Of a DNA stretch of 64,000 nucleotides, positions 2,477 through 47,975 are shown piece by piece. The position numbers and the translations under genes are program-made. Source of the DNA: a phage. Every line of letters starts with the position of its first letter. Position 1 is the stretch's first letter. The notes beneath the pieces were generated by a model. It saw nothing but the letters and a program-made list of their open reading frames with translations. It did no database searches and was not told where the DNA came from. The DNA is taken from the sequence record PZ386965.1. One strand, given 5' to 3'.

Positions 2477-2617
2477 TCACCATATTAATGAACGAATATC
2501 CATTATAACATCTGAAATGAAAAGCACTACTTGGATTAGTCCAAACATCACACCATAGTACAGAACCGTAAGCAACAACAAGAGCCCGAAGGCTCCTGCT
2601 AAGATTTTCTTAATCAT
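2477..2617 (-). CDS. small hydrophobic membrane protein, 46 aa
   Basis: ATG overlaps stop of upstream small ORF (TAATG); hydrophobic; below ORF-track cutoff. Confidence 0.35.
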   Translation of the reverse strand: MIKKILAGAFGLLLLLTVLYYGVMFGLIQVVLFISDVIMDIRSLIW

Positions 2618-2763
2618 TACTCGCCTTTTAACACGTTAAAAAGAGCTAAGACCGCTAAGGTGCCTTGTGATACGGCCTGTTGAAATACTGTTGTTTCGCC
2701 TGTAACTAAAGTGTTAACGAATAAAAACGACCAACACAACAATGCAATAATCCATGATACCAT
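2617..2763 (-). CDS. small membrane protein, 48 aa (ac-like by position)
   Basis: strong SD GAGGT; hydrophobic; sits where T4 ac/stp lie between 52 and ndd. Confidence 0.4.
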   Translation of the reverse strand: MVSWIIALLCWSFLFVNTLVTGETTVFQQAVSQGTLAVLALFNVLKGE

Positions 2764-2815
2764 TTTAATTACCTCAAAAATAAATTAAAGGCCTAACTTA
2801 ATAGGCCTGTATAAA

Positions 2816-3262
2816 TTAGTAACTCTGCAGAATGAATTTGAAATTATCGGCCAGAAGACGGTTCATTTCAGTGAGTGTTTGATATTCTGATGTATGGTTG
2901 CGAGTGAATGCCAGAGCCAATTGACCTTTACCATAACCAGTGGTCAGTGGTTTCATGTTCTTGGCTGAAACAAAGATTACGTCATATTCAATATTATTAG
3001 TACCCATGGTACGGGCTAGTTGCGAACGGCCTTGACGAATGTGAGAAAGAATTGCATCCAACCCTTGTTTAGAACGTTGACGTCCTACAAAGAATCGTGC
3101 TGCTACTTGTCGCCAATCAGATGAACCTTTAACAAAGAAGTAAAAACCTTCACGAGAACGAAACTCTTTAGAAACTTCAGAACCGTATTCGCCGTTACGA
3201 ACCACTGCAACAACTTCACCGCCAACTGCCAGAAGGTCTTTACGAGTTAAATATTTGGACAT
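2816..3262 (-). CDS. ndd: Ndd nucleoid disruption protein
   Basis: 148 aa; conserved [14 protein letters not shown]...[20 protein letters not shown] motifs as in T4 Ndd. Confidence 0.85.
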
Positions 3263-3307
3263 GCTAATTTCCTCAATTGATTAATGTTTTTTGTAATCCA
3301 TGAGAGC

Positions 3308-3337
3308 ATTATACTCTGCTCTCAAGAGTTTGTACAA
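3308..3337 (-). promoter_or_regulatory. promoter for ndd with -10 flanked by inverted repeat
   Basis: minus-sense TTGTAC...GAGAGCA GAG TATAAT GCTCTC. Confidence 0.5.
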
Positions 3338-3339
3338 TT

Positions 3340-3540
3340 TTATTCGGCTATATCAGAACGTTCAAAAAGCTCTTCAACAGTTAAACATTCAGTGTCATCT
3401 TCAATAAAGAATCGAGTCCAACACGTTGGGGCGATACAGTTATGAGTTTGTCCGGCGATAGAAGCTACACGAATAAGCTGCTGACCATTATTCAGAACAA
3501 ATTTTTCACCAATTTCAACATCTTTAAAAAGCTTAGCCAT
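3340..3540 (-). CDS. hypothetical protein, 66 aa
   Basis: ORF in ndd-denB interval. Confidence 0.45.
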   Translation of the reverse strand: MAKLFKDVEIGEKFVLNNGQQLIRVASIAGQTHNCIAPTCWTRFFIEDDTECLTVEELFERSDIAE

Positions 3541-8127: not shown

Positions 8128-8328
8128 TCACAAGTTACGTTTAAAAATTTCTGCTACTTCAAGAAGTTCTTCTTTAGTAGCTGTATCGGTTTGTATTTTA
8201 TATCGAATTTCTTTAAAGCGTTCTTTAAAGGACTCTGCTGATTCGATATCAAAAAATCTTTGGATAAGCCGGAATTCCCGGAGCACTGCTTTATCAAAAA
8301 GTTCCAAGTCCACGTTATATGTTCTCAT
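8128..8328 (-). CDS. rIIA.1-like small protein
   Basis: 66 aa ORF immediately upstream of rIIA. Confidence 0.55.
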   Translation of the reverse strand: MRTYNVDLELFDKAVLREFRLIQRFFDIESAESFKERFKEIRYKIQTDTATKEELLEVAEIFKRNL

Positions 8329-8353: not shown

Positions 8354-8404
8354 GGCACTATTACTAAAGACCATATAATCTATCATCTTATGTGTAATAG
8401 TGCC
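8354..8404. repeat. perfect 11-bp inverted repeat with 29-nt loop
   Basis: GGCACTATTAC ... GTAATAGTGCC between rIIA.1 and glycosyltransferase gene. Confidence 0.6.
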
Positions 8405-8420: not shown

Positions 8421-9521
8421 TTACGCTGTGAAGATTTTATCCCACATCGCAACAACTGCATCTCGATTATACTTCTTCCATACTGCTTCAGCACGTTTAA
8501 CTCGAGCTTCGTATGTGTCAGTGAATTCTAATACAGCTTTTGTGTAAAGCGCAACTACTTCTTTCTTAGGAGTAGAGGAATCAATTTCTACACGCACAGT
8601 ATCTGGGTCGTATTCAAATGACGCATGAGGATAATCCTTAAAAACTAACTGGATTACAGGGACACCTTTAGAGATGGCTTCAATAGAACTATTCTCTACC
8701 GTACCTGTGTCAGGACACGTATTAATAAGTGCTTTAGCTGTTTTAAGACGTTCCATAATTTCACTGTGTGGAGCATCAATAATAACAGGATATTTAGCTG
8801 GTGGTGCCCATTTACTAGGACAGTATCCTGCACCATTTTCGCCTAGTGCTTTAATCGCTTCAAGAGCAACATCAGTACGACGCATTTTAGTGTCATAACG
8901 TTGTGCACTAATAATCAGATCAGTCGCCGGAAGAACTTCAGGTTTCTCATTCAAACAAATAACCGGATAATCTTCGGCTTCAAACAACGGATTTGCTCGC
9001 CAATAATCATAATCAATTTTGTCAGTCAGACCTGAAGTCATATAACAATATTTACGTTCAAATTCACGGAAGGCTTTAGTAGGAGCATAACTCTTACCAC
9101 CGTTCTTATGAATTTGAATAGTCTGGTCCCAAATTTGAACAATGCCACGAGATACCGGTTCAAATGGTGTTGCCATAAAATTCTTATGAACTTTAGAGAG
9201 ACCTGCGTCTTTAATTGCCTGAACGGTTAGTTTAGTCGGTTCCATAGTAACAACGAAATCGTATTCATGGATGCCGGCTAGTTCAACAATCTTACGAGCC
9301 ATAGTATAACTCATACCTAGACTGAATTTAGTCAGATGACCAACAGGATGATGATTAACCTTCCAATCACCAAATGTGTCATTATCAAAACCAATATAAT
9401 CAATATCGGCACCGATAGAAACTAAATATTTCAACACATTTAAATGTACTGCTTCAAGACCACCTTGTACACGGTCAGGATTAAATGGGACTGCACGAGA
9501 TGGGATAAACATAACTTTCAT
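8421..9521 (-). CDS. putative GT-B fold glycosyltransferase (candidate hmC-DNA pentosyl/arabinosyl transferase)
   Basis: 366 aa; N-terminal MKVMFIPSR...GGLE and C-terminal EAISKGVPVI resemble GT4-like glycosyltransferases; occupies T4 gene 60/mobA slot. Confidence 0.55.
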   Translation of the reverse strand: MKVMFIPSRAVPFNPDRVQGGLEAVHLNVLKYLVSIGADIDYIGFDNDTFGDWKVNHHPVGHLTKFSLGMSYTMARKIVELAGIHEYDFVVTMEPTKLTVQAIKDAGLSKVHKNFMATPFEPVSRGIVQIWDQTIQIHKNGGKSYAPTKAFREFERKYCYMTSGLTDKIDYDYWRANPLFEAEDYPVICLNEKPEVLPATDLIISAQRYDTKMRRTDVALEAIKALGENGAGYCPSKWAPPAKYPVIIDAPHSEIMERLKTAKALINTCPDTGTVENSSIEAISKGVPVIQLVFKDYPHASFEYDPDTVRVEIDSSTPKKEVVALYTKAVLEFTDTYEARVKRAEAVWKKYNRDAVVAMWDKIFTA

Positions 9522-9529
9522 AATTAAGC

Positions 9530-9565
9530 CTTATTAAAATTAAAATGAAGCTCCCGAAGGAGCTT
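9530..9565 (-). terminator. intrinsic terminator after gene 39
   Basis: AAGCTCC-ttcg-GGAGCTT hairpin overlapping stop codon, T-rich tail. Confidence 0.55.
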
Positions 9566-11381
9566 AGGACATCCATTCTTTACGAAGTTCTGAATCATCA
9601 CCCATCAACATTTCAAAGAGTTCTTTCCAATTTTCAGGAAGTTTAACTACGTCGTACACAGGGTTCTGAATCATTTCACGATATTCTGACTTTTCAAGGG
9701 AGCCTAATCCCTTGATGTATCGAATACTATGCTTAGGCAGTGTATCTTTAACTTCTTCATACTCAGCTACAGTATAAAACCATTTTTGAGTTTTGCCAAT
9801 TTGTGCAATAATTACAGGTGTTTTAACAAAGCGAATACGTCCTTGTTCAAACAATTCAGGCCAATTACTAAAGAAAGCAAGCAAAGCCGGATAGATACTT
9901 CCAAGACCGTCATGATCTGCATCAGTCATAATTGCAATATTACGATAGTTCGTATTCTCTGCCTTTTCACCAAGAATAAGACCTGTGATAGCACAGATAT
10001 CAAAGAGCTCTTTGTTCTTCATCATATCAGCATATGACATACCCCAGCTATTCATCACCTTACCACGTAACGGGAATCCGCCGTGTAGTTCACGGTCACG
10101 AACATCAATGAGATAACCAATTGCAGAATCACCTTCTGTTAAGAACAATGTCGTATCTGCATCTTTACCACATTGGTTAGCTTTAATATGCTTATGAACC
10201 TTAGCTTTAGTTGCCTTTTTAGCTGCTTTAGTTTCTGCAGCCTTTTCTGCCGCCAATTTACGAGCTAATGCTGCTTCAACAATAGGCATAATCAAGGCTT
10301 CGTTTTTAAGAAGTGCCTGAGCAATTTTCTTAGCATCTAATTGGATATGATTACGAATATCGCCATACGTTGACGTTAAACGTTCTTTAGTCTGAGAATC
10401 AAAACGCATGTTGCTCATGTCTCTAATAAACATCAACATTGTGAGGCATTCTTTAACACGAGCTTTAGTGACTTCAATACCCTTATATTTCTTTTTAATA
10501 CCCGGCAAAAGATGTTCGCAGATATCGTCCATTACACATTCAACATGATGTCCACCATTTTTAGTATGGATGTTATTCACATAAGTTAAATGACGGAAGC
10601 CATCTGGTGATGTTGTGAATGCTATAGAGACTTTATCATTTTCTTGAATGATGTTATCTTCACCAAATTGTTTAGCAAATCGTTTAAAATTACCATCAAC
10701 CTTTTTACCGTTAAATGTGAACTTGATATCAGGATAAACGACTGCCAATGTTTGAAGTCGGTCTAAAGTAATATCTAAATAAATTTGAGATAAATTATGC
10801 TCTTCAAATGAAGTGAAATCAGGAGTGAAGATTACTTTAGTGCCTTTACCTTTAGATTTCTTAGAAGACCATGATTTGTTTTCCATTCCGTTTGAACAGT
10901 TAACAGTGATTTCATTTTCGCCATCTGACGTAATGCCTGTAAACAACGTAGAGAAGATATTAGTTAAACTACTCCCTACACCGTTCATACCACCGGTCTT
11001 GCGTTCAGAGTCATCACCAAAGTTACCACCAGCCTTTGGAATAGTCCAGGCTGCTACAGGCCCAGGAATTTGTTCACCTGTTTGGTCGGTAACTAAACCT
11101 TGAGGAATACCACGTCCGTTATCTTCTACAGAAACTTGATTATTTTTAATTTGCACATCAATTTTATTTGCAAACTTAAATGATGTACGAATAGCTTCAT
11201 CAACCGAGTTGTCAATAATCTCATCGATTAATTTAACCAGGCCAGGAACATATTCAACTTGTTGATATTTACCAAACAAAAAACGCTCATGTGCTTCTTT
11301 GGCCGAAGAACCAATATACATACCACTACGTTTCTTAATATGTTCTACATCTGACAATACCTTAATTTCATTTTTAATCAT
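9564..11381 (-). CDS. 39: DNA topoisomerase II large subunit (GyrB-like), continuous 39+60-type
   Basis: 605 aa single ORF; GHKL ATPase and TOPRIM motifs. Confidence 0.9.
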   Translation of the reverse strand: MIKNEIKVLSDVEHIKKRSGMYIGSSAKEAHERFLFGKYQQVEYVPGLVKLIDEIIDNSVDEAIRTSFKFANKIDVQIKNNQVSVEDNGRGIPQGLVTDQTGEQIPGPVAAWTIPKAGGNFGDDSERKTGGMNGVGSSLTNIFSTLFTGITSDGENEITVNCSNGMENKSWSSKKSKGKGTKVIFTPDFTSFEEHNLSQIYLDITLDRLQTLAVVYPDIKFTFNGKKVDGNFKRFAKQFGEDNIIQENDKVSIAFTTSPDGFRHLTYVNNIHTKNGGHHVECVMDDICEHLLPGIKKKYKGIEVTKARVKECLTMLMFIRDMSNMRFDSQTKERLTSTYGDIRNHIQLDAKKIAQALLKNEALIMPIVEAALARKLAAEKAAETKAAKKATKAKVHKHIKANQCGKDADTTLFLTEGDSAIGYLIDVRDRELHGGFPLRGKVMNSWGMSYADMMKNKELFDICAITGLILGEKAENTNYRNIAIMTDADHDGLGSIYPALLAFFSNWPELFEQGRIRFVKTPVIIAQIGKTQKWFYTVAEYEEVKDTLPKHSIRYIKGLGSLEKSEYREMIQNPVYDVVKLPENWKELFEMLMGDDSELRKEWMS

Positions 11382-29731: not shown

Positions 29732-30280
29732 TTAACGAGCCCATTTGATGATTTCTGTAATCAAACCATTACGTTCGCTTGCATTAAATCCTATAACTTT
29801 GTTAGCACCATCATGATTAAGTAATTGATATGTTTGGATTTTGTTATGAATTGCAAACTCTTCAAAATGTGAAATGACTGTATTAAAACCGAATGAAGAC
29901 AAAGTAATAAGGTCGTCTTCAAAACTTTCAGTCATTTCGTTACGTGTTAAAATAATTGTGAACACATCATGGTTTTGGCAAAGACGAACATAGTCCTGTT
30001 CATAAACGTCAAGAATCGAGTCCGCATCTTGTCGAATACGTCCATAAACCCAGTTACTAATATATCCACGGTCTAACAGATAAATCTTAGTAGGGTCTAA
30101 ATAATTCAACATCGTTTCGAAACAACCAACTTCATTTCGAGACTTAACATCGAAACGTCCATCAACTGTTCGTTTAGGGAAATCAATCTTTACATATCTT
30201 TCACTAATTTCCATTATGTCATTAATGAAAGTTGTTTTACCGGCATTATCCGGGCCATCTACTAAAATAATTTTAGCCAT
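29732..30280 (-). CDS. P-loop kinase, thymidylate/nucleotide-kinase-like
   Basis: 182 aa; Walker A VDGPDNAGKTT and LLDRGY (DRY-like) motif; occupies T4 segA/beta-gt interval. Confidence 0.55.
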   Translation of the reverse strand: MAKIILVDGPDNAGKTTFINDIMEISERYVKIDFPKRTVDGRFDVKSRNEVGCFETMLNYLDPTKIYLLDRGYISNWVYGRIRQDADSILDVYEQDYVRLCQNHDVFTIILTRNEMTESFEDDLITLSSFGFNTVISHFEEFAIHNKIQTYQLLNHDGANKVIGFNASERNGLITEIIKWAR

Positions 30281-30281
30281 T

Positions 30282-31181
30282 TTATTCCTCGATTACGACA
30301 TCTTCGTATTTAGGTATATTATACGGCGAAGAAATTAAAGCATTAAAGTAGATGAACTCACCAAGACCTGGATGGAATACTTCTTCAGGATTTTCGAAAT
30401 ATTGAATTTTCGGACGTCCTTTAAGAATTTGATAGTACTCAGTTTTAGTTGGTTTAAAAATTCGAATCAGCGCTTCTTCAGGATACTTATTTCTGTCGAA
30501 GCTATTATTTGGATCGGTTATATAAAGCGCTTGGCCTAATTGAATTGCACATTCAACCACTTGTTCAAAACGATAGCACGGGTCACTAATTCGAAATGGA
30601 TGAAAAATACCATCTAGATGAATAGGAGCCAAATCACCTACAAGACGCTGCATGATGGAAGGACGTATAACTTTCTGCGTTACGATAATCTTATTACCAT
30701 CTGCACCTGCGTTAACCAGCACTTCTTTTTGACGTTCATTCAACACAGTAGTTTGAAGTGAACGATTAACAGACAACATGTCGGTTTTTAAGAATTCATC
30801 AATATAAAAACGTGGTTTATTAGGGTCTGCAGTGATATTGAAATTGAATTCCACATCAAAAGCGCCGCCATAACCAGTGATATCTGTGATTAGAAAATCA
30901 CAATCATAATAATCAATTAATGAATCAACCACAAATTCATTTTCAGTCCAGAAATATTTACGAGTGTTATACGCGTTATCTTTATACCATAATGGAACAA
31001 ACTTAAATTCTGGGAAAAGACGTTCACATTCTTTAATATCAGATGCATTACGTGGATATGTAATCACATCACCCGGATTAGCACGGTGCAAATGAAGTTG
31101 GAAGTTGCCATCCTTAAGGATAGCATACTGTCCAGTTTCATAAGACCGCATACTCAAGATTGGTACGCGGAAAATAGCCAT
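30282..31181 (-). CDS. hypothetical protein, 299 aa (beta-gt locus)
   Basis: ORF immediately downstream of gene 42 where T4 has beta-gt; no motif recognised. Confidence 0.55.
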   Translation of the reverse strand: MAIFRVPILSMRSYETGQYAILKDGNFQLHLHRANPGDVITYPRNASDIKECERLFPEFKFVPLWYKDNAYNTRKYFWTENEFVVDSLIDYYDCDFLITDITGYGGAFDVEFNFNITADPNKPRFYIDEFLKTDMLSVNRSLQTTVLNERQKEVLVNAGADGNKIIVTQKVIRPSIMQRLVGDLAPIHLDGIFHPFRISDPCYRFEQVVECAIQLGQALYITDPNNSFDRNKYPEEALIRIFKPTKTEYYQILKGRPKIQYFENPEEVFHPGLGEFIYFNALISSPYNIPKYEDVVIEE

Positions 31182-31897
31182 TAGTCAAGGAATCCTTTAA
31201 CATAATCAAAATCACGTTCAAACACATGGGCACTTACCATGGTATGAGTATAATCACCAACTTCTACACCGCATTCGTTAGCGATATAATGAAGTAATTT
31301 TCCTTGGAGATAAAAATCCAACTGCATAACAACAGCACAGTTCTGAGAACGCATATGACAGTGGGTATAAAGCTTACCATCACGAATATAATAAGTTACT
31401 GAGTCAGTACATGGATATTCAAGTGTTTCGTCCGAATCAAGCAAAGCCTGATCAGAACTTTCTAGAATTTGGAACACAACTCTTCGAGAGTTAGGTTTTT
31501 CTTTAAGTTCTTTTAGAAGAGTTGGTAATTGGGCCGCAATGCGAGGACCATAGAAAGTGTTGAAGTTCGCCGGCAAAACATCTGATTTTGGTTTAGAAAT
31601 AAATTTAGCGACATTAGGATATGCCTTAAACGCTTCTTCTGCGTTGGTACCACCAGAAATCATAAACTTCCAGAAGTCTTCGGCATATTCATAAGAGATG
31701 CGGTTAATACGTGGGTCGGTCATTTTGAATGATGATGGAGTGTCAACAACTACTGTCATAGACCCAATTTCATTACAACGTCCAATACGAGAATCAGTTA
31801 CGAATTCCGGGTTTTCTAAAATTTCACGATTGACTGCTTTAAACGCGGTTTGAAAATCTGCGGCTTTGATATATTTCATTGTGTTATGTTTTCCCAT
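31181..31897 (-). CDS. 42: dCMP hydroxymethylase (thymidylate-synthase fold)
   Basis: 238 aa; CTDSVTYYIRD...MRSQN block aligns with T4 gp42 CTNTVQYLIRD...MRSND. Confidence 0.8.
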   Translation of the reverse strand: MGKHNTMKYIKAADFQTAFKAVNREILENPEFVTDSRIGRCNEIGSMTVVVDTPSSFKMTDPRINRISYEYAEDFWKFMISGGTNAEEAFKAYPNVAKFISKPKSDVLPANFNTFYGPRIAAQLPTLLKELKEKPNSRRVVFQILESSDQALLDSDETLEYPCTDSVTYYIRDGKLYTHCHMRSQNCAVVMQLDFYLQGKLLHYIANECGVEVGDYTHTMVSAHVFERDFDYVKGFLD

Positions 31898-31939: not shown

Positions 31940-32179
31940 TTATTTGAATTTCTTGACAATGTTGATATAACGTAAAGCTTCAGAATCTATACTTCCAAGA
32001 ACACTATGAAGGAATGCATCAGTGTAGTATTCTAATTGAACAGGTTCTTTAATCACTTTAGCCGCTTTGGTTTCAAACAGGCCCATAAGGGCCTTTTTAA
32101 GAATTTGTTCGTTAGTGTTCAGTTTCATAGTCAAAATCTCTTCGTTAAGTTTATAATTAAAACTTTTTCTAGAAATCAT
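31940..32179 (-). CDS. hypothetical protein, 79 aa
   Basis: ORF at 3' end of sugar cassette. Confidence 0.45.
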   Translation of the reverse strand: MISRKSFNYKLNEEILTMKLNTNEQILKKALMGLFETKAAKVIKEPVQLEYYTDAFLHSVLGSIDSEALRYINIVKKFK

Positions 32180-33345
32180 TCCGGGTACCTCAAAGCGTCA
32201 TCAGAGTTAGTTATATCAATAATAGATATGGAGTTTTCTGCTAACCCGTTTTTAGATAATTGACGTTTATAATACCTTTCACAATATGTACACGTTGACC
32301 CACAGATTTCATTAGCACAATCAAAATCTGGATGTCTGAACCACCTTTTTTCTAAAAAGCCATCTAACAAAGAGGTTTCAATATTTACTGTATGTGAAAA
32401 CTCAGTCTCATTTTCAAGAGTGAAAATAGTCTCTAAAGGCTTCCACAGTTCTAACAAATTACCTTCAAACTTTTCAGAAGCGTATGCTTCAAGAACTTTC
32501 AAAATGTAGTCTGTGCTACCTGTACGTCCTGAAACTTTGAATTGAGTGATACCAATATCATTATAAAGTTTCAAATCTTGAGGACGAACAAAACGAGTTC
32601 TCAACCAGTTAAATGGGTCTGTATCACGAGCTTTAATACAGTGCTGCATTGGATATCCATTTAAGGATTTAGCATCATCAGCGGTAACATCAGTACTATG
32701 GAAAATATAGCAAGAGTCACGATAGCTACAATGTGTTGTATACCCTTTACCAGCATTAGAACAGAACTCATTTACAAGAACTTCAAATATTATATTGTTC
32801 TTATTGCAAAACTCTGCTGCACGCTTCAGGAAAGAAACTGAACGGTTCTTATGAATTCCACAGCAGACCTTTTTGATATTATATTGGTCATGCAAGTATT
32901 TGATTTGAGTTACGGCATCAACATGTAGAATTGTTGAAACTTCAATCTCAATATCTTTATTGACTTCACGAACAATTTCCATAACAACAGGGTTAGCGAT
33001 AGTAATACGCCATACGCCTATTGACCAAAGATACTGAACATAATCCTGAATAGCTTTCTTCTTCCACTCAACTAGTTCTCTTTTTGAACCAGGATTTATC
33101 GTGTTGAGTGTATAGTTAAAGCAAATACCTAATTCATTACAACGTTTAACATAGTCTTCTAACATCTTTTTGTCAACGTCAGGAAGCCTAAAATCAGGTC
33201 TGGCTGCTACAAAAGCCATTTCTCTTGTAGAACCATATACTTCGTTTATCAAGCTATTAGGATAGGTTTTATTGAGCTCTACGATTTTATCAAGAAGAGC
33301 TAAATCAAAATTCGTTCCGATTTTAAAAGTATTCATTTTTTGCAT
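32176..33345 (-). CDS. Cys-rich enzyme of unknown family (possible Fe-S/metal site)
   Basis: 389 aa; C-terminal C-x4-C-x3-C-x2-C cluster (CANEICGSTCTYC); inside sugar cassette. Confidence 0.55.
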   Translation of the reverse strand: MQKMNTFKIGTNFDLALLDKIVELNKTYPNSLINEVYGSTREMAFVAARPDFRLPDVDKKMLEDYVKRCNELGICFNYTLNTINPGSKRELVEWKKKAIQDYVQYLWSIGVWRITIANPVVMEIVREVNKDIEIEVSTILHVDAVTQIKYLHDQYNIKKVCCGIHKNRSVSFLKRAAEFCNKNNIIFEVLVNEFCSNAGKGYTTHCSYRDSCYIFHSTDVTADDAKSLNGYPMQHCIKARDTDPFNWLRTRFVRPQDLKLYNDIGITQFKVSGRTGSTDYILKVLEAYASEKFEGNLLELWKPLETIFTLENETEFSHTVNIETSLLDGFLEKRWFRHPDFDCANEICGSTCTYCERYYKRQLSKNGLAENSISIIDITNSDDALRYPE

Positions 33346-33391: not shown

Positions 33392-33793
33392 TTATAGATT
33401 CGGTTTATATGATTTAAATGTTTCGAATTCGCCTTTATTCATAAGAGTTTTGAATTCGTCAGGACGCATAGCTTTGTCGTCGATAATCCAATCATATACT
33501 GGTTTATGTGTTAGCAAATTATGGTACTTCAAACCAATGTTTTCCAAGTTCTGAATCAGACTTGGGAGAATGTCAATTGCTATACGACCAGGACCTACTG
33601 ACTTCATACCACGAGCAGTGTAAAGCGTTATGGTATGCCCTGCATCATACAGGGCATTAATGGCAGACACCATTTCGACGTCCGGTTTGAAGTTCACGTA
33701 ATCACGATTGTTATTCCACTCTGTTATACAATCATCGACATCAAAACAAAGATTAAGCATGTTTTCTACACGGTGCATTAGATTCGTTCCCAT
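33392..33793 (-). CDS. HAD-superfamily phosphatase (cap-less, KdsC-like)
   Basis: 133 aa; motif I FDVDDCIT, motif II LYTARG, motif III/IV K..DWIIDD. Confidence 0.6.
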   Translation of the reverse strand: MGTNLMHRVENMLNLCFDVDDCITEWNNNRDYVNFKPDVEMVSAINALYDAGHTITLYTARGMKSVGPGRIAIDILPSLIQNLENIGLKYHNLLTHKPVYDWIIDDKAMRPDEFKTLMNKGEFETFKSYKPNL

Positions 33794-35463
33794 TGATGAG
33801 TGATATCGCCACCGATTGGACGATAGGAAACACCAGTTTCTTTATCAGTTAGTACCCATTTACCAGGATTTTTTGTAATCAGAGTAGCCATTACAGGTTC
33901 TGCTACGTCATAACTAATAGAGCCATCTTGAAGTACACGACCCATGTTACGTAATTGCTTAGTCAGAAGTTCCATACCTTTATAATATGCGGCTACCGCT
34001 TTAAGTGGATTATTCTTGAAATAACCACCTAATGCAATCCAGATAATTGCTACTGCCAAATGATGATACTCGTTAAACGAACTCATCTTTCCATATTTGT
34101 AAACTAATGGATTGATGTTAATAGTCACATTACAAGTTGTTTCATCAATAGTAAACTGTCCCCAGGTCGGATTAGCATTGAATTCATCATAACCTGAAAC
34201 AGCATAAAGCACTTTAGCTTCATCGTACAATTTTGGCCCGTAAATCTTGGTTTCACCAAAATATCCACGAGGGTCGATAAACTTGACTTCGCCGTTATCA
34301 GTAATCATAGTATTACTGAAGTTCGGGTCACCATGAATAACAGAGTACTGTCCCTGAGAACGGTTATGATAACGAATAAGATGTTCTAAAGCTTGTTTCA
34401 ACATTGGCTTCAGACGTCCAATCTTAGTGTAGTTCACGTGTGTGATTTTACCAAATGAATCAATCAATGGCTGAATGCTTTCACAACGATCAATAACTTT
34501 CGTATAGAACTCTTTAGTGAAATCACGGCGAACAGTTTCAGGACTTACAAAATAAGTGTCCGTGCTGAATTTCAGTGCATCTAAAATTGCATCAACAATT
34601 TGTGGACGAGCAAGACTTGATTTGGATTTAATATATTCAAATGCCGGCTTACCTTTAATACGTTCCATTTCAAAATTATTTTCATTTACCGAAACTAACT
34701 GAGGAACTGAATCTGATTTCACTTTCAAGTACCATGAAATCTCATCTTTTTGAAGAGCTCGACCTTGTTCGGTTAACGCGAATTTAGTTACAGTTTCTTC
34801 GCCAATTTCAACTGCATTAAAACTACGATTAAGTTCACGAACTTCATGAGCTTTTTCAAGTTTAGGCATATCACCTAAATCAATTAGATTCATAAGCTCT
34901 GATTTATTGAATGCACTCCCGTAAAGGAATTCTACAAAATCACGTCCTTTGCAGTATTCGTGAATTTCCTCATCAGTAGAACCCATGTAGAATTCCCAGT
35001 CTTTGAACTGATAAATTCCTACAACATTACCGCCTGTTGAACCTACGTTAGTGATATTTTCACCATCGAAATTATATCGACATTCATCACCCTTAACATA
35101 GATTGCGTTAACATTCCAAGACCATGAACCAAAATCAGGAATAATATCACACCAGTTAACAATTACGTTATGTCCATCTAAATCTTTGTATAATTTAGCA
35201 AGAGCATAAGCAGAACCATACGCTTCATCAACTGTACGAATAGTCACATTGAACCCTTCTTGCTCACAATAAGCTCGAACAGTTTCAGCAAATTTTGAAT
35301 GAACTACTACAATAATTTCATCTGCGCCAAGGTCAGAATAAATTGTATACAAATTGCTCAGAATAGTGTCTTGTTTATAGTTAACAAGCACCTTAGGAAT
35401 ATGATGCGTTATTGGATACAAACGAGTTGCCAGTCCAGCACCAAGAATAACAGCTTTTTTCAT
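33778..35463 (-). CDS. bifunctional sugar-1-phosphate nucleotidylyltransferase / APH-type anomeric sugar kinase
   Basis: 561 aa; N-terminal AVILGAGLATRLYPIT..PKVLV (RmlA-like NTP-transferase); C-terminal HGDPNFSN...FIDPRG (Brenner kinase motif). Confidence 0.7.
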   Translation of the reverse strand: MKKAVILGAGLATRLYPITHHIPKVLVNYKQDTILSNLYTIYSDLGADEIIVVVHSKFAETVRAYCEQEGFNVTIRTVDEAYGSAYALAKLYKDLDGHNVIVNWCDIIPDFGSWSWNVNAIYVKGDECRYNFDGENITNVGSTGGNVVGIYQFKDWEFYMGSTDEEIHEYCKGRDFVEFLYGSAFNKSELMNLIDLGDMPKLEKAHEVRELNRSFNAVEIGEETVTKFALTEQGRALQKDEISWYLKVKSDSVPQLVSVNENNFEMERIKGKPAFEYIKSKSSLARPQIVDAILDALKFSTDTYFVSPETVRRDFTKEFYTKVIDRCESIQPLIDSFGKITHVNYTKIGRLKPMLKQALEHLIRYHNRSQGQYSVIHGDPNFSNTMITDNGEVKFIDPRGYFGETKIYGPKLYDEAKVLYAVSGYDEFNANPTWGQFTIDETTCNVTININPLVYKYGKMSSFNEYHHLAVAIIWIALGGYFKNNPLKAVAAYYKGMELLTKQLRNMGRVLQDGSISYDVAEPVMATLITKNPGKWVLTDKETGVSYRPIGGDITHQWERI

Positions 35464-35504
35464 GTTGTGGTCCTCATTGGTAAGTAGGTGTATTGTACAC
35501 TATT

Positions 35505-35648
35505 CTAGTTAAAGCATTCATACTTTGCTTGTAGTCCAATCATAATCCATCCGATTATAAGAGTCGGAATCATTACTGGAGCCGTTAAGCTCCAGTAGAT
35601 AGTCATGACAAGCATCAATAGTAAAAGTCCTATTGTTATTGCTTTCAT
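35505..35648 (-). CDS. small membrane protein, 47 aa
   Basis: ATGA overlap with SIS gene stop; hydrophobic. Confidence 0.35.
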   Translation of the reverse strand: MKAITIGLLLLMLVMTIYWSLTAPVMIPTLIIGWIMIGLQAKYECFN

Positions 35649-36280
35649 TGCTCGCCTCGTAACATGGCACCTAGTGCACCGCCTGGATGGAACTTAAGGA
35701 AGTCATTAGAGGTAAATCCACGTTCAGACGAAAGGTTGATAGCGAACGTATCGATAAGCGCTAACAACAATGTAGTGGACATTGTCGGAGCTAAAGAGTT
35801 CTCGTCAACTTCTACCGCGATACCGGTACAGAACGTATAATCAAAAAGAGCTTCGTATTCTTGCGGAATGTCCGGGTTACAATGCAACAGAATCTGTTTA
35901 ACCTGAGGACGAATCATACGAAGATGTTTAGCAACACCTATCATTTCTTCAGTTTTACCAGAACGACTAATATGAATCAACACGTCATTAGGCGCAATGA
36001 ATCCTGCATCACCGTGAGAATAATGCCCAGTGTTCAAGTACATACTTGGGATACCGAGTGAAGCAAATGTCTCGGAAGCTTTAGTTGCAATATTAGCATT
36101 CTTACCAACACCTGTAATAATTACTCGGCTTTCATAATTACTAAGACCAGGGCGTCGAAGAGTTTCTAGAATAGCATTATAACGAGCAGGGTTTTGACTA
36201 ATTACTTTAGCCATAGCGGCCAAAGAAGAAGCTTGTTTTATGATTGCGTCAATAGCGATATTAATAGGAGTAGTTTTCAT
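35645..36280 (-). CDS. SIS-domain sugar-phosphate isomerase, arabinose-5-phosphate isomerase-like (KdsD/GutQ N-domain)
   Basis: 211 aa; ITGVGKNANIATKASETFASLG, ISRSGKTEE, LAPTMSTT, HPGGALG blocks match KdsD SIS domain. Confidence 0.75.
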   Translation of the reverse strand: MKTTPINIAIDAIIKQASSLAAMAKVISQNPARYNAILETLRRPGLSNYESRVIITGVGKNANIATKASETFASLGIPSMYLNTGHYSHGDAGFIAPNDVLIHISRSGKTEEMIGVAKHLRMIRPQVKQILLHCNPDIPQEYEALFDYTFCTGIAVEVDENSLAPTMSTTLLLALIDTFAINLSSERGFTSNDFLKFHPGGALGAMLRGEQ

Positions 36281-45152: not shown

Positions 45153-45396
45153 TATACGCATCCTCGATACACGCTTCAGCCATTTTAAGAATAGAGCCAG
45201 GAGTATCATTGTCCATTATATTAAAGCTAAATTCAATAGCCCAGTCGGTACAGACATGAACGGCTTTAACTTCATTGCCTTCAACGCGTAATGGCTCAAT
45301 CCAATACTTGATAGTGTTCTCGAATCCATCATCATCTTTAACGTCTATTTCAACTTCAAGCCCGAGCCCAGCATTATTAAATTCATCTAAAGTCAT
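45139..45396 (-). CDS. hypothetical acidic protein, 85 aa
   Basis: ORF. Confidence 0.45.
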   Translation of the reverse strand: MTLDEFNNAGLGLEVEIDVKDDDGFENTIKYWIEPLRVEGNEVKAVHVCTDWAIEFSFNIMDNDTPGSILKMAEACIEDAYNDED

Positions 45397-46412
45397 TGTG
45401 TTGCCTCAATATAAAGTTCGTTGGAATATTTGACCAGCGCTTCTCTGTCTTCGTCTGAGATATCTGGAATAGCGTCAATATATTCTTTAATGATATCTTG
45501 AAGTGATTTAATCTCGATTTCCTGGTCATCATCAGATTCAACACTGTTATCAACTTTAGAAACCATACGAAGAGAGTGAACTACTTTTTCAAGTTCAGAT
45601 TCAAACTTAGTCAACTCTGAATCAATTTCTGATACTATAACACGTACGGCTAGATTAGTATAATCAGAATAATTGATTTTGCCTTTAAATGGATAAGTGA
45701 TTCGTCGATGCCATGTTGTTTCATTAGGAATAAATTCCATACGTTCAACATCAGTGTCAAATACCCAGAATCCACGTGGGTCGTTCTCGTCACCTGCAGT
45801 AAGGGTCCATGGTGTCCCAATATATTTGACGTTAGCAGCTTCAGAGATTGTGTGGAAGTGGCCGGACCAGACTTGTTTATAGGTCTTTAAGAAATCAGGT
45901 TCAAGCCCATGGGACTTCATTCCTTTATAGAAATAAAAGCCGTTCAGTTCCCAGTGACCAACACAATACGCAGCAGAAGAAGTCTTGATGTGCTCTAAGA
46001 TTTCACCTGTATTTTCTTCACACATCCATGGAACGATATCAATCAGACATCCGTCAAAATCTACAGTAGTTGGATGCTCGTAAATAGTAAAGTTTTCAAA
46101 TTGAGTTAACAATTCAGAAACAGTGTTAGGTGTTATTGTATTCTTAAACGCCATGTCATGGTTTCCTATCGTGACATGAACGTGAATGCCTGCTTTAGAA
46201 ATCATATCAACGATTTCACGATTGAATTCCATTGTACGATGTGTTATTGCTTTACGGACGTCAAACCAATCACCGTACTGAATCCAAGTTTTAATCCCGT
46301 GTTTCTTAGAGTATTCAATTGCTTGTCGAATACCATCACGTTGAATATCTTGAACCCATGGGTCGTCTTGTTTGACTCCGATATGGAAGTCGCCTAAGTG
46401 CAAAATTTTCAT
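45393..46412 (-). CDS. 47: recombination endonuclease subunit (Mre11/SbcD-like)
   Basis: 339 aa; MKILHLGDFHIG phosphoesterase motif I. Confidence 0.9.
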   Translation of the reverse strand: MKILHLGDFHIGVKQDDPWVQDIQRDGIRQAIEYSKKHGIKTWIQYGDWFDVRKAITHRTMEFNREIVDMISKAGIHVHVTIGNHDMAFKNTITPNTVSELLTQFENFTIYEHPTTVDFDGCLIDIVPWMCEENTGEILEHIKTSSAAYCVGHWELNGFYFYKGMKSHGLEPDFLKTYKQVWSGHFHTISEAANVKYIGTPWTLTAGDENDPRGFWVFDTDVERMEFIPNETTWHRRITYPFKGKINYSDYTNLAVRVIVSEIDSELTKFESELEKVVHSLRMVSKVDNSVESDDDQEIEIKSLQDIIKEYIDAIPDISDEDREALVKYSNELYIEATQ

Positions 46413-47200: not shown

Positions 47201-47416
47201 TTATCTCATTAAATTAAAATAAAAACGTCCGTCCTCTTCAATACAGAACTCGTACTCAACTGGAGTCCCATTTATCGAAAATGACACGTCATGCGGGTTC
47301 AAAGGGTCGATGTCAAAATTAATTTTAAATTCTCGACCCAACAGTTTTACCAAATAAGGGATTGCTTCGTCAAAAGGTTCTTCTAAGTAGTTAGAGATGT
47401 CAATTGTCATCCTCAT
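47201..47416 (-). CDS. hypothetical protein, about 70 aa
   Basis: start at internal Met just after gene 55 stop. Confidence 0.4.
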
Positions 47417-47975
47417 ATAAAAAATCCAAACTAGGCGAATCGCTAACAACTTCCTTCTTTTCAGCCCCAGGAGCTTTATAAGCGGATTCTTCATAATGCG
47501 TCATTTTATCGTAGATGTCTTGAATAAACGTTTCATCTACCAACGCTACCATATCATCGTCATGACTGTCGTAGACATTATGAACGAAGTAACTATATTT
47601 CTTTGCAACTTCCTTACGTTCTTTTTTGATACGTTGGACAAAAGCATTAAAACAAGCTCGAGTTATGTATGCATGTGGGTTATTGTACTTAGTTTCGTCG
47701 AAATTATGAAGTCCCTTAATAGAGGCTTCAATCCCATCTGCAATCATCTCCTGCTTCCAAGACTGGGTATATCCTGAAAAGTTGAAACGTTTGGACAGGC
47801 CTTCGGCGATAAGCATAATTGCTAAACCGATGGTATCATTCTGACGAATAATTTTGTTTGGGTCTTTATTATTTAAGAGCTCCTTTTTCCACTCGATTAT
47901 AGCGGCGAGAAGCTCTTTATTATTCACATAGTTATTTTTAGGTTTTTGTTCAGTCATAAGTACCTCTTGGCTCAA
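47400..47975 (-). CDS. 55: late sigma factor
   Basis: 191 aa; long identical blocks to T4 gp55 ([52 protein letters not shown]). Confidence 0.9.

Follow-up and report, generated by a model that had tools for sequence, protein, structure and literature searches.

A glycosyltransferase gene between rIIA.1 and gene 39

The stretch of DNA analysed here (record PZ386965.1, 64,000 nucleotides (nt), hereafter the window) belongs to a Mosigvirus, i.e. an RB69-like T-even phage, and our subject is one of its genes, which encodes a glycosyltransferase (GT) of 366 amino acids (aa). Around this gene, a stretch of about 3 kb is 98.9% identical to Escherichia phage 55 and O157 typing phage 3, and Mosigvirus mar005p1 is collinear with the whole window at 95-97% identity. 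The locus contains the following features:

8128..8328: rIIA.1, 71% identical to T4 rIIA.1, flanking the 366-aa gene
8354..8404, minus strand: inverted repeat GGCACTATTAC ... GTAATAGTGCC, arms of 11 bp and a spacer of 29 nt, between the stop of the 366-aa gene and the start of rIIA.1 (direct reading)
8421..9521, minus strand: 366-aa GT-B (GT4-like) glycosyltransferase gene with an ATG start, orthologue of RB69 ORF003c/gp3 and of the phage HY126 enzyme
9529..9532, minus strand: Shine-Dalgarno AAGG, after the hairpin and 7 nt ahead of the ATG at 9521
9548..9565, minus strand: terminator-like UUCG-tetraloop hairpin AAGCTCC-TTCG-GGAGCTT, overlapping the gene 39 stop codon and preceding the 366-aa gene (scan for terminator-like elements and direct reading)
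9564..11381, minus strand: gene 39, a single open reading frame (ORF) of 605 aa covering T4 gp39 (79% identity) and gp60, the other flank of the 366-aa gene

The 366-aa ORF is a genuine gene under strong purifying selection. Comparison with three Mosigvirus orthologues gave 2-3 nonsynonymous and 23-30 synonymous codon differences (random expectation: 22% synonymous), and the longest stop-free stretch produced by chance in 200 shuffles of the 5 kb around the gene was 152 aa. An initial annotation of the window had placed a 366-aa ORF here, between rIIA.1 and a continuous 605-aa gene 39, and our data bear out both statements. The C-terminus of gene 39 matches T4 gp60 within the same ORF; gene 60 is therefore not split off in this phage, and both the translational-bypass element and mobA are missing. 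Gene 39 is also continuous in Klebsiella phages F48 and phi1_146055.

The GC content of the 366-aa gene (0.39-0.40) is not distinctive when compared with adjoining DNA (0.35-0.42), and we rejected a horizontal-transfer signal from GC content since the gene lies within the range of its surroundings. A scan for sigma-70-like promoters found 7 sites against 12.3 in shuffles, a result that is uninformative for early and middle promoters of the T4 type.

The 366-aa protein is a GT-B glycosyltransferase

The protein is 99.5% identical to RB69 ORF003c (gp3, NP_861693) and 98% identical to the glycosyltransferase of phage HY126, of which an apo structure (PDB 9iqz) and one with uridine diphosphate (UDP; PDB 9ir0) were released on 2025-07-16; the family profile matched both entries with an E of 3e-196. 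HY126 is a Mosigvirus and is itself among the tblastn matches of the 366-aa gene. He and colleagues are said to have characterised the HY126 pathway in Nat Chem Biol in 2026, which is likely the source of the two structures. The 366-aa protein is in effect identical with RB69 ORF003c and the HY126 enzyme, differing by only two or three residues, and in RB69, too, the gene is flanked by rIIA.1 and gene 39 (PMC6024577 Fig. 5 legend; PMC13390438). Thomas et al. (2018; PMC6024577), who found arabinose in RB69 DNA, nominated ORF003c as the arabinosyl-hydroxymethylcytosine (hmC) transferase on the basis of HHpred and Phyre2, and this is the RB69 locus to which the initial annotation had correctly referred.

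No Pfam family and no NCBIfam model matched the protein, even at E <= 10. Because these scans were empty, family membership was taken from PHROGs, PDB sequences and structure. PHROG 8302 ('unknown function') is matched end to end (residues 1-366, E 3e-222), and Foldseek gave a probability of 1.00 against GT-B enzymes, the nearest structural neighbours being PimA, BshA, WaaG, tll1591 and a tetrahydrobiopterin glucosyltransferase. In the AlphaFold model, strand and helix elements alternate in both halves. Given that this model is mediocre, we took the fold from the solved 9iqz/9ir0 chains and drew no residue-level conclusions from the model. The 366-aa protein is a nucleotide-sugar glycosyltransferase of GT-B fold and GT4-like type, as had been proposed at the outset; a fold other than GT-B, which the proposal had named as its own refutation, is not what the match to 9iqz/9ir0 gives. 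UDP binding by the 98%-identical orthologue is taken from the title of PDB entry 9ir0.

The N-terminus reads MKVMFIPSRAVPFNPDRVQGGLE (MKVMFIPSR...GGLE), and three elements are invariant in the ORF003c family: GGL, R-x5-R and E-x4-E-A-x3-G-x-P-V. The C-terminal motif, which had been miscounted as E-x7-GVPVI, is in fact G273-T-V-E276-N-S-S-I-E281-A-I-S-K-G286-V-P-V-I. The canonical GT4 C-terminal motif is E-x7-E; here the spacing is E-x4-E, with the second Glu and its A-x3-G-x-P-V context invariant. The protein shares the N-terminal Gly-Gly loop and the C-terminal E-A-x3-G-x-P-V helix motif with bacterial retaining GT4 enzymes (PimA, BshA, WaaG, tll1591; Glycos_transf_1), but differs from them in lacking a Pfam or NCBIfam match, in having E276-x4-E281, and in carrying a Gly at the position of the first Glu.

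A second glycosyltransferase lies within an arabinosylation cluster

The T4 alpha- and beta-glucosyltransferase genes (alpha-gt and beta-gt) had been reported absent, and indeed neither gave a tblastn match in the window (best E > 2) or anything at E <= 1 in the complete collinear Mosigvirus genome OZ035759.1. Between gene 47 (45393..46412) and gene 55 (47400..47975) there are only small ORFs of 57-107 aa, also as described. The interval between uvsX and gene 42, by contrast, had been said to hold unrelated genes, and this was wrong: it contains a second GT-B glycosyltransferase, of 299 aa, together with a UDP-arabinose pathway.

29732..30280, minus strand: nucleotide-kinase-like protein, 182 aa, RB69 gp45; weak dTMP-kinase match, homologue annotated as thymidylate kinase in phages Berthold and F48; role according to PMC13326640 Table 1
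30282..31181, minus strand: compact GT-B glycosyltransferase, 299 aa, RB69 gp46:47, intact; proposed first, base-directed arabinosyltransferase, directly downstream of the thymidylate-synthase homologue, at the T4 beta-gt position
31181..31897, minus strand: thymidylate-synthase homologue, 238 aa, at the gene 42 position (Pfam Thymidylat_synt, E 2e-15); predicted synthase of 5-hydroxydeoxycytidine monophosphate (5-hydroxy-dCMP), not a dCMP hydroxymethylase
32176..33345, minus strand: Peptidase_U32-family protein, 389 aa, RB69 gp50 (Pfam PF01136, E 7e-11)
33392..33793, minus strand: HAD-like sugar phosphatase, 133 aa, analogous to HY126 AfhF, RB69 gp51 (NCBIfam TIGR01689 capsule biosynthesis phosphatase, E 2e-13; role according to PMC13326640)
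33778..35463, minus strand: bifunctional sugar-1-phosphate nucleotidyltransferase and kinase, 561 aa, analogous to HY126 AfhE, RB69 gp52:53, intact (Pfam NTP_transferase, E 1e-9; kinase-like C-terminal matches; role in UDP-arabinofuranose synthesis according to PMC13326640)
35645..36280, minus strand: SIS-domain arabinose-5-phosphate isomerase, 211 aa, RB69 gp55 (Pfam SIS, E 4e-10; PMC13326640 Table 1)

The gene set of this interval agrees with the published UDP-arabinofuranose (UDP-Araf) pathway. In the RB69 reference record the equivalents of the 299-aa and 561-aa genes are split (ORFs 46/47 and 52/53), which Lee et al. (PMC13326640) ascribed to sequencing errors; both are single, intact ORFs in the window, supporting that explanation. 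In the cluster of Klebsiella phage F48 (943..9409) the DNA polymerase gene leads directly into a 555-aa nucleotidyltransferase/kinase gene and, unlike in the window and in Berthold, no SIS arabinose-5-phosphate isomerase gene is annotated there; F48 may rely on the KdsD or GutQ of its host.

The 299-aa protein had no match in Pfam, NCBIfam or PDB sequences, and its AlphaFold model is a compact GT-B (predicted local distance difference test (pLDDT) 95, predicted TM-score 0.89). Although it adjoins the gene 42 homologue, where T4 has beta-gt, it is an unrelated enzyme. We also looked for a relationship between the two glycosyltransferases of the window and discarded it, since profile-profile comparison with hhalign gave a probability of 0.2%, i.e. 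no detectable sequence similarity.

The modified base is probably 5-hydroxycytosine

The thymidylate-synthase homologue is only 25% identical to T4 gp42, compared to about 80% for neighbouring core genes. In the alignment, T4 gp42 reads M-R-S-N-D, whereas the homologues of the window, of Berthold (DLP3-like) and of Klebsiella F48 read M-R-S-Q-N. The window protein thus has an Asp-to-Asn change at the position of E. coli ThyA D169 and retains the Asp at T4 D179, which specifies cytosine. The D169 numbering follows a fragment that we take to be that of E. coli ThyA. This Asp-to-Asn change is diagnostic of 5-hydroxy-dCMP synthases according to Lee et al. (2026; PMC13326640), who identified the base as 5-hydroxycytosine (5hoC) by tandem mass spectrometry and nuclear magnetic resonance and described the gene 42 homologue as a flavin- and O2-dependent 5-hydroxy-dCMP synthase. 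Arabinosyl-5-hydroxycytosine is found in the DNA of RB69, NP and Bas46/47 (PMC13326640, PMC13390438). The acceptor base in this phage is thus predicted to be 5hoC and not hmC, the acceptor assumed in the initial annotation (PMC13326640, PMC13390438); an hmC-DNA glycosyltransferase is not what the window would encode.

In RB69, O5 of the base carries beta-D-Araf-(1->3)-alpha-D-Araf and a mono-arabinosylated form is also present, and in Acinetobacter phage DLP3 a third, beta-linked Araf is added (PMC13326640). The same authors proposed RB69 gp46:47 as arabinosyltransferase 1 and gp3 (ORF003c) as 'beta-arabinosyltransferase 2', the latter assignment being found in PMC13390438 too. DLP3 gp76 and gp77 are the only transferases that these authors assayed: together, but not singly, they added a third arabinose to RB69 DNA with UDP-Araf (PMC13326640).

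Copy number of the ORF003c family follows the reported number of arabinoses

The distributions of the two transferase families are nested. A tblastn search with the 366-aa gene found the ORF003c family in 212 phage records, with one copy in Mosigvirus-type phages of Escherichia and Shigella, two tandem copies in Acinetobacter phages, and one stray record. The 299-aa family was found in 351 phage records, from Escherichia, Acinetobacter, Klebsiella, Serratia, Enterobacter, Proteus, Yersinia, Edwardsiella, Pectobacterium and Pseudomonas hosts. With the exception of a single 'Tegunavirus' record, no phage of Klebsiella, Serratia, Enterobacter, Proteus, Yersinia or Pectobacterium was among the ORF003c-family matches. 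That record, from the genus of Yersinia phage TG1, carries a member with less than 60% identity, while other TG1-type phages have only the 299-aa GT. HMMER, run exhaustively against 1.84 billion representatives (E <= 1e-3), returned only 12 members of the ORF003c family; the 299-aa family comprises 136 homologue clusters. When the two weakest hits from the exhaustive search (E ~1e-3) were scanned with Pfam, only P0136 had Glycos_transf_1 above the curated cut-off.

Their gene neighbourhoods differ as well. The 299-aa gene stands beside the thymidylate-synthase homologue at every locus examined. In Acinetobacter phages, members of the ORF003c family follow the kinase gene within the cluster; in Mosigvirus they lie between rIIA.1 and gene 39. 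In Klebsiella phage F48, for example, the cluster is complete and includes the 299-aa GT, but the space from gene 39 to rIIA.1 contains just an ORF of 324 bp, which makes the 366-aa gene a discrete add-on.

The number of ORF003c copies parallels the sugars reported: none in mono-arabinosylated phages (LC53, Thanatos), one in those with mono- and di-arabinosylated bases (RB69, NP, Bas46/47), and two in tri-arabinosylated DLP3. Mosigvirus NP has mono- and di-arabinosylated bases in a 1:4 ratio (Durham Collection paper), and the literature describes Bas46 and Bas47 as doubly and LC53 as singly arabinosylated. Thanatos is mono-arabinosylated and has a single GT, syntenic to the 299-aa GT (PMC13326640). 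A gene called 'Aat' has been deleted in Bas46 (PMC13216743); it probably corresponds to ORF003c, although it may instead be the 299-aa gene.

The tandem glycosyltransferases of Lazarusvirus DLP3, gp76 and gp77, are full-length members of the same family, with 40-43% identity to the 366-aa protein as measured via their Berthold equivalents. They differ from it in location, being a tandem pair that immediately follows the kinase gene within the cluster (the 366-aa gene is single and 21 kb away from the cluster), and in extending the chain to three sugars. They were duplicated after the split from the Mosigvirus lineage (57% identity to each other).

Some diverged members have other surroundings. 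A 39%-identical one (P0129; metagenomic contig SRR34261890_53613, 10001..11140) lies in a structural module (M23 peptidase, gp13-like, DUF4815, large terminase). The gene order of its phage does not resemble that of T4, no gene for arabinosylation is found up to 10 kb away, and the acceptor of this member may differ. Another adjoins DNA ligase and dsbA in a T4-like contig, and the contigs with diverged members P0128 and P0130 are too short to judge the presence of an arabinosylation cluster.

Within Mosigvirus, the gap between the 366-aa gene and gene 39 is an insertion hotspot: Escherichia phage p000v has a homing endonuclease gene there (2565..3362), and AV109 and phi25-307 have about 0.8 kb of additional DNA. 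In Shigella phage JK45 the tblastn match to the 366-aa GT falls in two pieces over 1.6 kb with a summed score above that of a single copy, suggesting a partial duplication or an insertion inside the gene.

The 366-aa protein as a proposed second, chain-extending arabinosyltransferase

We propose the following pathway. The thymidylate-synthase homologue (31181..31897) would make 5-hydroxy-dCMP, which would be phosphorylated and then incorporated in place of deoxycytidine. The isomerase, kinase/uridylyltransferase and phosphatase genes (33392..36280) would provide UDP-D-arabinofuranose, from which the 299-aa GT-B (30282..31181) would put the first alpha-D-Araf on O5 of the base. As the fifth and last step, the 366-aa protein, a soluble enzyme, would move a second Araf from UDP-Araf to O3 of the first sugar, on DNA, yielding beta-D-Araf-(1->3)-alpha-D-Araf-5-hydroxycytosine. 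This di-arabinosylated form is the dominant one in RB69-like virions.

That the 366-aa protein is a UDP-sugar transferase of the arabinosylation pathway is close to certain. That it is the second, chain-extending DNA arabinofuranosyltransferase we hold with a probability of about 70%: fold and UDP binding come from tools and deposited data, and base and linkages from the literature, and we infer step five rather than step four from the phyletic pattern and the published chemistry. The attachment of one arabinose by phages that have only a 299-aa GT points to the latter as the base-directed enzyme, and hence to the ORF003c family as the chain extender, in agreement with the DLP3 result in vitro. 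The initial annotation had called the 366-aa protein the best candidate for the DNA arabinosyltransferase. It was right in making it part of an arabinosylation system that replaces the glucosylation of T4, yet the protein is not the sole candidate and is probably not the primary enzyme, a role that would fall to the 299-aa GT.

Several observations weigh against this assignment. We found no direct assay of the 366-aa protein or of RB69 gp3 in the literature covered, which excludes He et al. (2026) and Mahler et al. (2025). Of the DLP3 transferases, none had activity on 5hoC-DNA by itself, and both paralogues were required for tri-arabinosylation (PMC13326640), so that a rule of one enzyme per sugar is not proven. 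The two Berthold paralogues share 57% identity with each other but 40-43% with the 366-aa protein, and there is thus no one-to-one orthology by which a specific step or linkage could be transferred from the Acinetobacter enzymes. LC53 and Thanatos are placed in the zero-copy class by the lack of any Serratia or Shewanella record among the matches, and LC53 itself may not be in the phage collection. The AlphaFold model of the 366-aa protein was built from 6 sequences only and has a pLDDT of 61, with residues 116-188 below 50. Last, the first linkage is alpha and the second beta with a single donor, which means that one of the enzymes must invert, and the nearest structural neighbours of both GTs are retaining GT4/GT5 enzymes.

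This last conflict concerns the 366-aa protein directly, given that bacterial GT4 enzymes are retaining and its proposed product is beta-linked. The MurU/AmgK-like architecture of the activating enzyme suggests UDP-alpha-D-Araf as the donor. With this donor and a beta-(1->3) product, the 366-aa protein would be an inverting furanosyltransferase on a scaffold with retaining GT4/GT5 relatives, which we regard as possible but doubtful. Inversion might have its structural basis in the changed E-x4-E spacing and the Gly in place of the first Glu. If true, a GT4-like fold would have switched its mechanism in an unusual way, and on a sugar acceptor bound to DNA.

The view of Thomas et al. (2018) and of the initial annotation, in which the 366-aa protein is the primary, base-directed transferase of the first arabinose (on hmC or 5hoC), is unlikely. 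It was derived from HMM/HHpred matches to T4 alpha-GT and GT4 and from a Phyre2 GT-B model (PMC6024577), and the residues that these authors aligned with phosphate-binding residues of alpha-GT, G20 and R208, are indeed invariant in the family. However, the ORF003c family is missing from most arabinosylating genera, which have only the 299-aa GT, and Thanatos is mono-arabinosylated with one GT, syntenic to the latter (PMC13326640). Besides, the base is 5hoC rather than hmC, and the DLP3 paralogues act on DNA that is already arabinosylated.

A shade less probable is that the two GTs are not strictly sequential, the 366-aa protein acting only in complex with the 299-aa protein or each enzyme adding either sugar. 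The 299-aa GT evidently works alone in many phages without a 366-aa gene, and the families have no detectable similarity (hhalign 0.2%) and lie 21 kb apart; these facts fit poorly with such a scheme, even if the third arabinose of DLP3 took two transferases, neither active alone on 5hoC-DNA (PMC13326640). Highly improbable, finally, is a non-DNA target (a host envelope component, a protein or a small molecule) with a coincidental link to arabinosylation: the nearest structural neighbours do act on lipids, small molecules and polysaccharides, and P0129 (39% identity), from the structural module of an unrelated phage, has no arabinosylation genes closer than 10 kb, but copy number equals the number of extra arabinoses on DNA, and the Acinetobacter paralogues are inside the arabinosylation cluster and modify DNA in vitro.

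The 366-aa gene is already known: it was nominated in 2018, its role was refined or reassigned in 2025-26, and a structure has been deposited. What our analysis corrects is the annotation logic for such windows, namely 5hoC instead of hmC and two transferases instead of one, the 366-aa protein being most likely the second. The number of arabinoses on cytosines decides which defences are escaped or triggered, among them restriction enzymes, type I CRISPR-Cas, DNA glycosylases and type IV enzymes (BrxU, CMoRE). An add-on transferase that takes mono- to di-arabinosylation would therefore be a compact counter-defence module, of relevance to phage therapy cocktails made from Mosigviruses.

Comparison with the glucosyltransferases of T4, T2 and T6

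The T4 alpha-glucosyltransferase (GT72) and beta-glucosyltransferase (GT63) have no sequence similarity to the 366-aa protein, and both genes occupy different positions, the former between genes 47 and 55 and the latter next to gene 42. The T4 enzymes use UDP-glucose as the donor and the hydroxymethyl of hmC as the acceptor, whereas the 366-aa protein would use UDP-arabinofuranose and probably a sugar hydroxyl on arabinosyl-5hoC. The closest functional analogy is the beta-alpha-glucosyltransferase of T2 and T6, an accessory enzyme acting on phage DNA, where the first sugar, in alpha linkage, receives a second one in beta linkage. It adds a second, beta-linked glucose to alpha-glucosyl-hmC, giving gentiobiosyl-hmC. 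Sugar and base differ from those of the 366-aa system; the analogy is functional and homology is not expected. The gentiobiosyl chemistry of T2/T6-type DNA is described in PMC13390438.

A U32-family gene as a possible hydroxylase

The 389-aa U32-family protein of the cluster has, besides its Pfam hit, a weak match to UbiU. It is 79-88% identical across Pectobacterium, Enterobacter, Providencia, Yersinia, Proteus and Shewanella Thanatos-1 phages, being far more conserved than the 299-aa GT, and has ten invariant cysteines, including a C-terminal C-x4-C-x3-C-x2-C. Hydroxylases of the U32 family are oxygen-independent. Two U32 proteins, RlhA and TrhP, are needed for 5-hydroxycytidine (ho5C) in ribosomal RNA and 5-hydroxyuridine (ho5U) in transfer RNA, respectively (PMC5727448, PMC6599085). 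Lee et al. (PMC13326640) listed the phage gene only as a 'sugar or heterocycle reductase', and no paper in the literature covered, with the limits given above, links it to 5-hydroxycytosine in these phages. The gene is found in the clusters of enterobacterial phages and is absent from that of the phage of a strictly aerobic Acinetobacter host. It could provide an oxygen-independent (anaerobic) route to 5-hydroxycytosine, as opposed to the O2-requiring hydroxylase related to thymidylate synthase.

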